Positions 11,941 to 16,553 of a stretch of 64,000 bases of DNA are shown piece by piece. A program made the position numbers and the translations under genes. The stretch comes from Heterodontus francisci (lineage: Eukaryota): NCBI RefSeq assembly GCF_036365525.1, contig NC_090374.1:139042685-139106684 (forward strand), in the 5' to 3' direction. A model generated the notes under the pieces. That model was not told the origin of the DNA and made no database searches. It was given only the letters and a program-made list of their open reading frames with translations. Each line of letters starts with the position of its first letter. Position 1 is the stretch's first letter.

Positions 11941-12188
11941 TGTCATGAATTTCGTTGTGTTATCTTAAGCAACACAATAAAGTACATGGATTCCCGTTCC
12001 TTGAAGATCTGTAGAAGGTTTATTTACAGATAAACTAATACACACAATACAGAGCAAACTATCTACAGAACCTTTGTCCTGGGTATTACAGTGCAGAGAG
12101 ATCATGGCTTTACATCACATGACTACATCCTGGTACTTAGCTCATTAGCATACTGAGTTCTTAAAGGGACATCACTCTTAAAGCAACG
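11941..12188 (-). repeat. 3' LTR
   Basis: Direct repeat of 16304-16553 (roughly 85% identity by eye). Ends in ...CA on the minus strand, has a minus-strand AATAAA and directly follows the PPT. Confidence 0.93.
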
Positions 12189-12202
12189 TCCCCTTTCTTT
12201 CC
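12189..12202 (-). promoter_or_regulatory. Polypurine tract
   Basis: The minus strand reads GGAAAGAAAGGGGA, abutting the 3' LTR. Confidence 0.88.
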
Positions 12203-12344
12203 AAAGATAAGTCTCGTTCACTACAAGTAAAAACACATAAAATTGGATAATATCAAAATTAGTTATACAGGAATAGAAATGATAAAATTTACAAGTATAA
12301 AGATAAGGATTGTGACATTTATGAGTGCAGAAGCTTAAGAGTCT

Positions 12345-12549
12345 ATATATCATTTCGGTGGCTTGACAACTCTTCCAGATCTTTGGATATAACCTTCTGG
12401 GGATATGGATTTCACCCTTGGCTGTTTTTGGTTTGCAGACATGTTATCAATGTGTTGGTTGTTGTCCTGTTGTTCCGTCACTGCATATTGGTCAAGCACC
12501 ATCTTCATTCTCCCTTGTTTTTGGCCAGTGTCTCCTGCATCTCGGAGAA
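12345..12549 (-). pseudogene. Gypsy integrase C-terminal tail remnant
   Basis: FSEMQETLAK/KQGRMKMVLDQYA followed by RSGRVVKPPK*Y, resembling the (T)RSGRxxKPPxR terminus typical of Gypsy Pol. Confidence 0.65.
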
Positions 12550-13210
12550 TTTGCATCTAAGCTGTTGCTATTTTTTGTGAAGTTTCTGTTGCTCTGTCTT
12601 CAGCCTGCTAAGATACTGCTTTTCTCAGGATGAACACTTTTGAGGCCTTGTCATTTTTGGAAAGTACTGGCACCTCATCTCGAAGAGCCAACAGACAATG
12701 CTTCAACTCATTCCTCCTTTGCCTCTCCATGACATTGTGTGTGTATCACCTCTCCTCATCCTCTGCGTCTGAAGGCCTGGGGCTCAAGATCGAGGGGGAG
12801 GAGTACTTGGCCTCTTGGAGGTACCTGTCTGTTCTGGCTCATTCTGGTGCTGGCAGTTCTCTCGAGAGCAGAGGTGAAAGCACGGCAAAGTTATGCTGTT
12901 GCTGGATTTCCAGACTCCACCGTTTGATGCTGGCCAGAGCCTGTGAGTGGGTTTCAGTCCTTGGAGATTTCCCCTTGGCAATGCTCCCCACTGCCAGCCT
13001 TTGTTTCTCAATGGTCACAACGTCAATCTCTTCTTCTGAGTCGCTGGAGCGTGAAGAAACATTGCCTGTTGGTGAAGAACTTTCACCATCTGAATTTGAA
13101 TGTTTATTCTCTTGGTGTGGTGTCTCTGAGAAGGGGCTGATACTCTCCAAACCAGAACCGCTGAGATCCTGGAAGAACTGTGACTCAATCTCAGACATCA
13201 AAGGGCTGGA
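12550..13210 (-). pseudogene. myc: Captured, intronless Myc-family coding segment (MBIII to bHLH-leucine zipper), disabled in this copy
   Basis: One frame reads FFQDLSGSGLESISP...SSDSEEEIDVVTIEK...LEIQQQHNFA...PAPE*ART...[55 protein letters not shown]. After a frameshift at ~12616 it continues [21 protein letters not shown]. These are Myc boxes and the bHLH-LZ in canonical order. Confidence 0.96.
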
Positions 13211-13700
13211 CACAGGGAGTGCATCCTCTCTGAGGTGCAGTATGGTATTGCCTTTGAAATCTCCTATGGCACTGAACCTGCCCGGGTACATTTGTTGTAA
13301 ATCCTGGACTGACTCAACGCATGTACCCTTGGCCTCTTCTGCTGTAGTGGGTACCTTGGTGATCTTGTGGATAGTGACGATGTTGAGGTCCTTACAGGCT
13401 GGTAGTCCTGCCACTGCTGGTCCACTCATGTCTCCCAGTTAAAATATTTGTGGTTTCCATGCTGACTTGCCATAGCTCCATTGCATTGTTCGTGTGCCAA
13501 TTCAAAGGATGGGTGACCCCTTGTATGCAGTTAACTTTGCAGTTGTCGGTTGTATCATTAATTTCCAATGACCTTGGTATATGTCATTCAAGATTCGGAT
13601 TGGTAGGATATGTGCACTAGCTCCCATGTCAATCTTAGTCCTGAGTGTGTGTTTGTCAACTTTCTTTGGACACATGATATTAATAGTAGCTAAAGCTTCC
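13211..13700 (-). pseudogene. Gypsy aspartic protease and protease-RT linker
   Basis: KIDMGASAHILP at 13636-13601 (DTG decayed to DMG), LTAYKGSPI, GLPACKDLNIV and YPGRFSAIGDFKG...LHLREDALPV. Same frame as myc; stops at 13504 and 13441. Confidence 0.85.
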
Positions 13701-14468
13701 AGTTGACTTCATCAACACAACATGTCAGGTTCACAATGTGAAATGTCTGCTTGTCTTCTGGCTGAGAATTGCTCCACTCTGAGATCTTCTCTCAGGTCTA
13801 TTTTACTGTGGACTTCATCTATCAGCTTGCATTTACACAGTTCTCTGGCGCTCTGCTTGCTGCTGTTGCCATATTACTGCTCCTGTCTTCTGTTTGTTTG
13901 TGTCCTATTGTGACCTTTGACTGCATCTTTGGAGCCAGATTTCTTGCATAGGTGGGCCCAGTGTCATTTTGCGCTGCATGCCTTGCACAGATCTTGAAGT
14001 GCAGGACAACTTGGTGAGTGGAACAAATCACATTTACCACACAGCTTGTTTGCTTTTTATGACCTGGCTACCGTGCCAATACTGTTGGCTGCACCTAGTG
14101 TTTGCAGATGCTGTTGTCCGGCTACAATGACTTCATATTTCCAGCCATCTTCCATCAGCGCATCAATTCTGTGACCTTTCTTTTCCCCAAGAGGTCTTTT
14201 TGGAATGCTTCAATTGGTGTTGAGACAATCACCAGCTTCATTATTCGCTCCGATTGCTCAATTTCTGAAAAATCGCATTTGTTGCACTGACTACGGTATC
14301 CACGGATGAATTGATCTATTGATTCCTGTGGCTGTTGCCTGTAGGACATCAATTCCAGGCAATGAATTCTAAAATTCACTCTTACCTGAAGCTGATCTTC
14401 TACCACTTTCCATATCTTTATGGGATCTTTCTGGTCCTCTTCAGATAAGCCAGAGGTATTGATTCTGT

Positions 14469-15359
14469 AGACAAAGTGACTCCTGACAATGCAGCGGCCC
14501 ACTGATGTCATCAGAGTGCTCCAAACTGCGCAGATATGCAAATGGTCTCCAGCGCACTGAGATGCTGCGCATGCACACCCTAGGTCTTGCCCTGCCAGGA
14601 CTAACTAGCGCATGTACAGAAAAACTCTCTTCCCCCCCCACCCCCCCCCACCCTCGGTCACTCACTCCAGGCTGCTTGCTCCTCGTTACAGTCCACCCCC
14701 ACCCTCCAGCCACTCGCTCCCTGCTTCCCCCCCCACCACGCTGTCCTGCCCCTCGCTTCGCCCCAACCATCCCTCGAGATGCTAGCTCTTGGCTGCGGGC
14801 CGCTTCCCTCCTCTCGGCCGCTCACTCCTGCATTGCCCCATCACCCGTCACCGCCTGCTTTGCTTCTTGGGGCGGAGCGAGTGGCCGAGAGGAGGGAAGC
14901 AGTGCAGCCTGTGGCCTACAGCTAGCATCTGGAGGAATGGGGTGGAGGGGGGGGGGGGCGGCGGGAAGTGGGGAACGAGCGGCTGGTGCGCAGGATGGTG
15001 GGGAAGTGGGGAGTGAACGGTCAGAGAGCAGGATGGGGGGGTGCTGGGAGAGGGATTGAACGGCTGGAGAGCAGGATGGCACTGAAACCTCACAGAATTA
15101 CGGAGGGTGTGCAGCACTGTCAGAGGTGCTGTCCTTCTGATGAGGCTTTGAACAGCACAATGTTTTTCCAGTATCAAACATGTCCATTGTGTGCTGTTAT
15201 GGGTTGAAGTTGTTTTTCTGTGATAAACTGAGCAGCACCATCTTTAAGCCTGGCAGCTGGCTGCACGTCGCAGACAGAGATGTATAAGTGGAAGAGGCTG
15301 CATTTGAGCATGTGCAAGTACAGCACCACCTAGTGGTTGCATTGTCAGCAAATGCAGCC
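14469..15359. mobile_element. Non-coding GC-rich insertion inside gag with subterminal inverted repeats
   Basis: Flanked by direct repeat ttctgt (14463-14468, 15360-15365). Inverted pair ctgacaatgca (~14483) and tgcattgtcag (~15338). The gag reading joins across it. Confidence 0.75.
15321..15340 (-). promoter_or_regulatory. CTCF-like motif within the insertion
   Basis: Minus strand GCAACCACTAGGTGGTGCTG is close to the CCACYAGRKGGCRS core consensus. Motif match only. Confidence 0.35.
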
Positions 15360-16290
15360 TTCTGTCTCACCCCTCATTTCCAACTGCTGTCAGTATTTTC
15401 ACAGCCTGCTTCTCTAGTTTTGCAACCGCTTGGTCTATGAAGCATAACTACATTCTTTGTTTAAAAAATTTGAACTCGGATCGGATATCAATGGCCTTCC
15501 AATTAATGCTAGGAAATTTGATATCCATCCTTCTGCTGTTCTTTTGCTTTCTGCTCTATATTTAACTTTGTTCAGCTCGGTGTGTGCCTTCAGCACTGTG
15601 CTTATTATGACTTTCCTATTTGTGGCTTCAAATTTGTGTTAAAACATTGTCTATTAACTCTGCACTATTCCCCCTTTAAGACATTTTATTTTCCAGGCTA
15701 GCTGCTTTGAATGGAGTGTAACAGGTGCTTGACAGTGTTCTGTGTTTTTTCTCTTTCATCACTTTGCTTGTATGTTTGCACAACTGTTTGATAGGCAGTT
15801 CAAGGGTTTTCCCTTTTACTTTTTTTTTGTTTGAATTTTTTTATCTTCCTGCTTGACTGGTTTAATAATTTTCTTTTCAGCTTGACTGCTTTAATGGAGG
15901 CTTGGGGGTTTCCCATGCATTTTTCACTATTGGACTTTGCTTTTTTTCCAGTTCACGCATTTTTAAGGTTTTCTCCTTTTTTCCTCAAATTCGCTCACAC
16001 GGAGCCTTTAGAAATGGAATTAATTAAAAACTCTTCAAAGGCTTTGTTTTTTTTTTACCCAGATTCCTCGATCATCGGCACAATGACTCACCCAATCGCT
16101 TGCTTTTCAGCCATGCTTCCGTTCTATGGAGCTTTACTTAGCCTTCTGAGGAATGTAGCTTTCCTTCACTCTTTTTTTTCAGGAACATTTTAAAGTTTCT
16201 TCACTTGTTGCATCAAATTTTCTCTTCTGTTTTCTGTATTGCTTTTACATTTTGTTTGCTGTTTTAGTTGTGGTCTTCAAGCTTATATCT

Positions 16291-16303
16291 TGTGTTTTCA
16301 CCA
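16291..16303 (-). promoter_or_regulatory. Putative primer binding site
   Basis: Minus strand TGGTGAAAAC... begins immediately after the 5' LTR; TGG pairs with the tRNA CCA end. The cognate tRNA was not identified. Confidence 0.6.
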
Positions 16304-16553
16304 TATCATGAGTTTTTTTATTATCTTAACCAACACAATGAAGTACATGGATTCCAGTTCCTTGAAGATCTCTAGAAGCTTTAGTTACAGCTAAACTAAT
16401 ACAATACCGAGCAAACCATCTACAAATCTTTTGTCTGGGGTGTTACAGTGCAGAGAGACCAAGGCTTCTAGTCACATGACTACATCCTGGTACTTAGCTC
16501 ATTAGCATACTGAGCTCTTAAAGGGACATCACTCTTAAAGCGATCAGACAACA
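16304..16553 (-). repeat. 5' LTR
   Basis: Starts TGTTG on the minus strand; direct repeat of 11941-12188. Confidence 0.93.

Follow-up and report, generated by a model that had tools for sequence, protein, structure and literature searches.

Introduction

Retroviruses of the MC29 type carry a gag-myc fusion and need a helper. The origin of v-myc, with a change at T58 of Myc box I (MBI), is treated in PMC10032378, and the double template switch of long terminal repeat (LTR)-mediated retroposition has already been described for animals (Tan et al. 2016, PMC5131818). Here we describe, in a 64,000-nt stretch of the horn shark (Heterodontus francisci) genome (assembly GCF_036365525.1, contig NC_090374.1, positions 139,042,685 to 139,106,684; hereafter the window), a Gypsy element at 11941..16553 in which part of a spliced cDNA of mych, a Myc paralogue of fish and sharks, stands in place of pol. 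We propose that the mych cDNA was captured by a double template switch of the Gypsy element and that the chimera was amplified in trans by a parent family bearing reverse transcriptase (RT), the Myc part being most likely a passenger; we put the probability of this reading at roughly 0.75. Transduction and amplification of the fusion as a unit are strongly supported.

Structure of the Gypsy-mych fusion

A preliminary description of this locus, made from the sequence alone, had recognised a captured Myc proto-oncogene. The cargo is indeed a Myc-family cDNA, though it derives from mych rather than c-myc and comprises the last two thirds only. Its best protein matches are all mych (myelocytomatosis oncogene homolog), that of Heterodontus francisci being the top one at 81%. 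The host gene (L033) lies on a contig other than that of the window (C16, 100016366-100019167, minus strand), has two coding exons separated by a 1707-nt GT-AG intron, and translates to the horn shark Mych protein (P0002) at 365 of 366 residues. The intron is gone from all 23 copies (22 loci and the window). In 22 copies the cargo starts at mRNA position 352-361, one locus being cut short, and in the junction alignment it ends at codon 357-358, ahead of the host stop codon. The captured part thus comprises MB3b, MB4, the bHLH (basic helix-loop-helix) region and most of the zipper. From their motifs, we take MBI to lie at about residues 33-49 of the host protein and Myc box II (MBII) at about residues 101-104. 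The capture starts at host residue 121, downstream of both motifs, and so neither box was taken. The T-x-x-x-S spacing of MB1 agrees with PMC11369687, which places the transcription and transformation functions in MB0-3a and finds these poorly conserved in zebrafish Mych. Forced mych in fish is reported to have given occasional tumours. A PDB search with host Mych residues 1-120 returned no match.

Both ends of the cargo fall on short sequences common to donor and recipient. At the 5' junction, the parent pol (8 of 10 parent loci) and host mych both carry GGATGCA, which reads as Asp-Ala in each; this junction, first placed near 13210/13211, is real, though its position is corrected here to 13226-13220. 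At the 3' junction, CAAATT is common to host mych and the parent integrase tail (exact in two of three loci, with one mismatch in the third) and reads as Lys-Phe in each; eight further matching bases are found five positions beyond this microhomology. Counted over the well-occupied columns of a 17-copy alignment, 1413 nt lie between the ATG and the 5' junction and 708 nt between the two junctions. The earliest stop that most copies (14 of 17) share is at codon 781, in the tail, and no frameshift is common to more than two of the 17. At least three copies have a stop at each of ten codons, eight of which are sites of CpG decay. Every one of the 17 copies read has at least ten breaks. From the in-frame lengths, the lack of a widely shared frameshift and the CpG-decay stops, we infer that the active element was read as one open Gag-Pro-Mych(121-357)-tail frame. 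The earlier proposal of a Myc-family cDNA fused in frame in place of pol is borne out. Two later deletions in the tail also keep the frame, measuring 231 and 327 nt after single-row private indels are set aside. The 96-nt difference between them is seen directly, and the size of the smaller depends on which long copy serves as the reference row (213, 221 or 231 nt with private indels still included).

Such short microhomologies at both ends would fit equally well an origin at the DNA level, in which microhomology-mediated repair filled a break or deletion in an integrated element with mych cDNA, mobility as a non-autonomous element being acquired afterwards; capture of spliced cDNA at breaks has been described in mouse zygotes (PMC4516963). 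We find this quite improbable, since the cargo is sense-oriented and cleanly replaces about 2.3 kb of pol with no filler bases, and since free cDNA would be an extra step, whereas co-packaging supplies both templates for the double template switch that we favour.

The element in the window

The element lies on the minus strand and has the anatomy first proposed for it, with gag, protease, the Myc segment and an integrase tail between two LTRs. Its features are the following.

16554..16558, minus strand: 5' target-site duplication (TSD), matching the 3' copy at four of five positions
16304..16553, minus strand: 5' LTR, 250 nt, with TG start and one CATGTG hexamer at 16478-16473
16295..16303, minus strand: remnant of the primer-binding site (PBS), with TGG start; most sister copies have a longer one
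13710..15528, minus strand: gag, with ATG at 15528 and a CCHC knuckle near 13993-13919; carries stops, frameshifts and an insertion
14470..15368, strand unassigned: private 0.9-kb insertion within gag, with short subterminal inverted repeats
13227..13709, minus strand: protease plus the initial residues of RT; the window copy has a changed catalytic motif and two stops
13220..13226, minus strand: 5' junction, 7-nt microhomology GGATGCA, Asp-Ala in pol and mych (present in host mRNA and in 8 of 10 parent-type loci)
12548..13226, minus strand: captured spliced mych cDNA, host residues 121-357, with the exon-exon joint at 13036/13035
12548..12553, minus strand: 3' junction, 6-nt microhomology CAAATT, Lys-Phe in mych and integrase tail (exact in two of three parent-type loci, one mismatch in the third)
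12335..12547, minus strand: integrase C-terminal tail, with an internal deletion common to most copies; stop at 12337 in 14 of 17 copies
12189..12202, minus strand: polypurine tract (PPT)
11941..12188, minus strand: 3' LTR, 248 nt, with CA end
11936..11940, minus strand: 3' target-site duplication

Judged by its sequence, the chimera has the hallmarks of Ty3/Gypsy elements: TG...CA LTRs, a PBS, a PPT and a 5-bp TSD. The TSD and PBS reported for the window copy are both present, though the former (TGCAC/TGCTC, 4 of 5) is not a clean match and the latter is a shortened remnant. The two LTRs align with 215 matches and 27 mismatches (Kimura two-parameter distance, K2P, 0.12). RT, RNaseH and the integrase core are absent, as claimed, and there is no env, about 135 nt separating the tail stop from the PPT. 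Pfam matches to Myc_N (E=6e-9) and HLH (E=2e-11) lie in the same frame as the protease region, and the Gag CCHC knuckle gave a match below the cutoff (E=0.006). On the window protease piece Pfam detected no protease family; its homology came from a HMMER scan of 1.8 billion representatives, in which the protease region was closest to Gypsy Gag-Pol proteins of marine invertebrates (35-47% identity).

The window copy is dead, with the 0.9-kb gag insertion, nine stops before the end of the tail and five frameshifting indels. The frame that had been described as uninterrupted from pol to the bHLH is continuous but not open in this copy: it meets stops at 13504, 13441, 12841 and 12748 and a frameshifting deletion near 12617, so that the mych cargo itself holds two stops and one frameshift. 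The gag insertion is missing from all 15 fetched sister copies that cover that part of gag. Its inverted repeats comprise a subterminal one of 11 nt and others further inside, alongside short repeats rich in C/G, and no second copy was found in the window or the fetched loci; it is possibly a non-autonomous DNA transposon.

The CATGTG hexamer at 16478-16473 and the matching site in the 3' LTR stand in the context GTCATGTGAC, which is presumably better suited to MiT/USF-type bHLH-zipper factors than to Myc-Max. Elsewhere in the window, a further LTR of this family, solo or partial, lies at 32033-32215 on the plus strand, 80-81% identical to the element LTRs, and decayed fragments of LINE-type endonuclease and RT were recognised by eye on both strands at 3900-11500, 17300-22800 and 30000-36500. 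ARAGORN found no tRNA gene in the 64 kb.

Copy number and distribution of the family

The chimera is not confined to this locus. When a 1-kb query spanning the junction was used, 40 of 40 scored loci crossed the 5' junction at 82-86%, and the order protease-myc-tail-LTR was kept in all of the 20 best non-self loci. Across the whole 6-Gb genome, a 22-nt word over the 5' junction gave 129 matches at no more than one mismatch (52 of them exact) and a 24-nt word over the 3' junction gave 280 at no more than two, with none for the reversed control of either word. Scaling by mismatch ratio or by recapture in the sample puts the copy number at about 220-470, 280 being a floor. About 26 of 79 listed one-mismatch matches to the 3' word share a one-base synonymous variant that is rare in the fetched sample; this is perhaps an under-sampled sub-lineage.

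Of 13 copies with both LTRs, ten have both outer ends located (in L009, L011 and L019 one outer LTR end was not), and eight of these ten show a TSD matching at four or five of five positions, each a different word; the other two match at two to three of five. The copies stand in different flanks on many contigs. The median distance between paired LTRs is 0.133 (13 copies), and the tree of the myc part is star-shaped with end branches near 0.07. Tail lengths fall into three classes among 21 copies: two are long like the parent (L024, L025), 16 have one deletion, and three (L026-L028) have 96 nt more removed, which indicates that the chimera was copied through more than one round. The expectation that the chimera had been amplified as a unit is thereby supported by the junction matches and by copies with TSDs of their own.

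These data also bear on whether a LINE-made retrocopy had landed in a dead element that was then spread by segmental duplication, or whether the fusion is a misassembly, outcomes by which the preliminary description itself would have been overturned. Some duplication does occur: the near-identical pair L029/L032 (K2P 0.03), about 1.2 Mb apart on contig C8, is probably a later segmental duplication. Against a retrocopy, however, no 3' untranslated region (UTR), poly(A) or TSD was found around the myc segment in the 23 copies, and pol is replaced, not interrupted; against duplication at large stand the hundreds of loci, the distinct flanks and TSDs on many contigs, and the star-shaped tree. Against a misassembly, two contigs bridging the 5' junction were present, among the matches listed, in a sequencing run with another species label. 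None of the sequencing runs with matches is registered as RNA, and the contigs come from runs presumed to be RNA. We regard these explanations as barely credible. The bridging contigs under another species label further imply that the chimeric family probably predates a species split. In the run of a further organism (organism C), no contig bridging a junction was among the matches listed. Longer proteins holding the window protease piece comprised only two chimeric predictions, both from horn shark, which is weak evidence of absence elsewhere.

Six horn-shark database proteins named "N-myc-like" or "myc-like" (P0005, P0006, P0007, P0010, P0012 and P0017) match truncated mych, and four of them (P0005, P0006, P0010 and P0012) start with pol residues. 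From their sequences they look like annotated copies of the chimeric family, and because such copies are annotated as Myc-like proteins, Myc gene counts for the horn shark are inflated.

A parent family with reverse transcriptase

A chimera without RT, RNaseH or integrase core would need a helper, as the preliminary description had proposed. Searching with the protease-RT protein of a relative, we found 12 RT-bearing loci, ten of which share gag and protease with the window element at 74-86%; the five that reach an LTR share it at 70-79%. The parent has the order protease-RT-RNaseH-integrase, colinear with P0177 to residue 1108 in L035 and to residue 1090 in L041. Its protease/RT boundary word has 550 matches in the genome. 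Divergence among the RT copies is 10-13%, similar in magnitude to that among the chimeras, and in a gag-protease tree 16 chimeras and three of ten parent-type copies fall in one clade (support 100/99). As these RT-bearing copies are of the same age and subfamily, their sequences indicate that a helper of the right kind existed in this genome, in support of helper dependence. Two loci, L040 and L044, were excluded from the parent counts; they belong to a second, more distant Gypsy family, with 64-70% DNA identity in the protease and the same protease/RT boundary.

Selection and age

Selection on the Myc part was assessed in 22 copies from changes outside CpG sites, with L032 set aside because it nearly duplicates L029. 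Private changes behave neutrally: 68 of the 295 are synonymous, where 74.4 would be expected. For changes common to at least three copies, 16 of 36 are synonymous against 12.9 expected (z=1.1). A raw contrast had looked stronger, but most of it came from transitions that recurred and from a single duplicated pair. In these 22 copies the Myc part shows no significant purifying selection (z=1.54 for changes common to at least two), the star-like tree giving little power, and a dN/dS below 1, put forward as a check by the preliminary description, is neither established nor rejected. Stop-free copies are not in excess among element-type protein matches (11 of 110, with 14 expected by Poisson), and there is thus no sign of a domesticated subset.

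Several observations nevertheless weigh against the reading of the Myc part as a passenger carried by a chimera of single origin. Changes common to at least two copies lean towards synonymous (45 of 112, against 37.5 expected), reaching an uncorrected p=0.047 for transitions alone. None of these 112 introduces a stop, where about 3.5 were expected from the opportunity table, which gives a weak hint that the frame was open during copying. Given the 5-7 nt words shared by pol and mych, both junctions would be in frame by chance in 14-19% of cases. The 3' junction is defined by three parent loci, the fetched copies are biased towards those most like the window copy, and monophyly of the chimeras in gag-protease is neither established nor rejected (approximately unbiased test, p-AU 0.34).

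The lean towards synonymous changes, the missing stops and the two in-frame junctions are also what would be expected had the captured piece worked and been selected. A protease-released Mych lacking its activation domain could then still bind Max, E-boxes, WDR5 and HCF-1, and would aid spread in the germ line either as a competitor of host Myc or by acting on the element's own LTR. The bHLH and nearly the whole zipper were captured, the two shared tail deletions keep the frame, chimeric junction matches number 129 against 550 of parent type, and 28 of 35 chimeric LTRs hold the CATGTG hexamer; moreover, an engineered Myc consisting of bHLH and zipper only (Omomyc) is a dominant negative (PMC10032378). 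Yet the synonymous excess is not significant once mutation type is corrected for (z=1.54 and 1.1), stop-free copies are not over-represented, and the keeping of the frame can be explained without any function of Myc. The hexamer is likewise present in parent LTRs (the same in three of six, CACGTG in one) and is therefore older than the capture, and one such hexamer per 250 nt is common by chance. On balance we hold a working cargo to be unlikely. Because the fragment lacks the activation boxes (PMC10032378 on MBII and Omomyc), it would, if made and released, more probably have been a rival of host Myc for Max and E-boxes than a transforming protein, any such action being speculative. If the fragment did act, an element outside the Retroviridae would have used a Myc-family accessory factor, an activation-domain-less Mych acting through Max and E-boxes in germ cells, to spread.

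The captured region also dates the event. Among amino-acid changes of the host lineage in this region, 11 are common to most copies and eight came later, with four further changes on the element side. The 11 shared and eight later changes place the capture slightly short of the midpoint, going back along the horn-shark branch. We take that branch to be some 180 million years long, a figure with wide error, in which case the capture would be about 75 million years old; it is tens of millions of years old at least. An absolute date of about 95 million generations, obtained from the epaulette-shark rate of 7e-10 per generation (PMC10587355), was rejected as implausible.

Origin of the chimera

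Taken together, these observations suggest the following course for a passenger mych captured by template switching. A single-ORF Ty3/Gypsy element would have packaged host mych mRNA alongside its own RNA. During minus-strand synthesis, RT would have switched within the integrase tail from the element RNA to the spliced mych mRNA and, having copied this, would have switched back directly behind the protease, the two switches landing on the 6-nt and 7-nt microhomologies observed at the junctions. The product would have kept the LTRs, PBS, PPT, gag and protease and lost RT, RNaseH and the integrase core. The parent subfamily, whose RT-bearing copies are still present, may then have copied the chimera in trans to the several hundred sites at which it is found, with the two later tail deletions as apparent markers of sub-lineages. 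The RNA probably profited from an open frame, either because Gag was made in cis or through escape from nonsense decay. The Myc part was most likely a passenger, and all copies read would since have decayed neutrally.

We found no report of a Myc gene carried by an LTR retrotransposon, nor a paper on this family, in a literature search of partial cover (most subscription journals lay outside it). What appears new is that the cargo belongs to the Myc family, is joined in frame at either side and exists in hundreds of copies, and that both its donor and the parent element are identified. The family documents, fully resolved and in nature, the oncogene-style transduction of a gene by a retroelement that is not a virus: the donor, the parent, both crossovers and hundreds of descendants are found in one genome. 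It suggests that the architecture of a defective transducing retrovirus can arise and amplify without env and with a Myc-family gene, and its many copies make selection on the captured cargo of an LTR retrotransposon directly testable.

Comparison with known systems

Single-ORF Ty3/Gypsy elements of marine animals, P0125 of Lytechinus and P0149 of Solemya, have Gag-protease regions 35-47% identical to that of the chimera and agree with it in the residues at the protease/RT boundary and in how the integrase tail ends; in contrast to the chimera, they keep RT, RNaseH and integrase. We take these sea urchin and bivalve elements to be Mag-like. With the v-myc retroviruses, MC29 and its kin, the family shares a spliced myc-family cDNA replacing pol, an in-frame upstream fusion and the need for a helper. 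It differs from them in lying outside the Retroviridae, in lacking env, in its germ-line copies, and in a mych cargo without MBI and MBII, both retained in v-Myc. Its resemblance to cancer-causing retroviruses is therefore one of structure and not shown in function: the sequences of the chimeric family give no sign of a transforming function, and the suggestion of a v-myc analogue does not extend to function, with both boxes left behind, no env, and 17 of 17 copies read broken.

The crocodilian endogenous retroviruses CrocERV29 (KIT ligand) and CrocERV31 (nectin3) are likewise LTR elements of vertebrates that exist in multiple copies and carry a host mRNA, cancer-related in one case, and the KIT-ligand elements are the nearest vertebrate precedent for such a cargo (PMC4299795). 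They are, however, true retroviruses with the cargo in a separate ORF, under reported purifying selection and with intact copies, whereas here the cargo is fused to a Gypsy pol and its selection is not significant. Maize Bs1 and HERV-K/FAM8A1 (cited in PMC5131818) also combine an LTR element with a captured host cDNA, in other hosts and with other cargo, FAM8A1 being a single pseudogene.

The closest counterparts are the LTR-mediated retrocopies of PMC5131818. In both, a partial spliced mRNA replaces part of the internal ORF, microsimilarity is present at both switch points (median 6 bp there, 7 and 6 here), no poly(A) or inner TSD is found, and the non-autonomous product goes through further cycles, its cargo often sharing the reading frame of the parent protein. 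With ORF replacement, intron loss, microsimilarity, absence of poly(A) and inner TSD, and further retroposition all present, the chimeric family is of this kind. The word "myc" does not occur in the accessible text of PMC5131818 or in nine of its ten supplement files, the supplement listing genes by Ensembl id. What sets the horn shark family apart is that its cargo encodes a transcription factor of the Myc family and joins pol in frame at either end, and its extent: in the accessible text two of the Drosophila cases are multi-site (18 sites, nine retrocopies), whereas at least 280 junctions are found here, an unusually large amplification presumably driven by a helper after capture.

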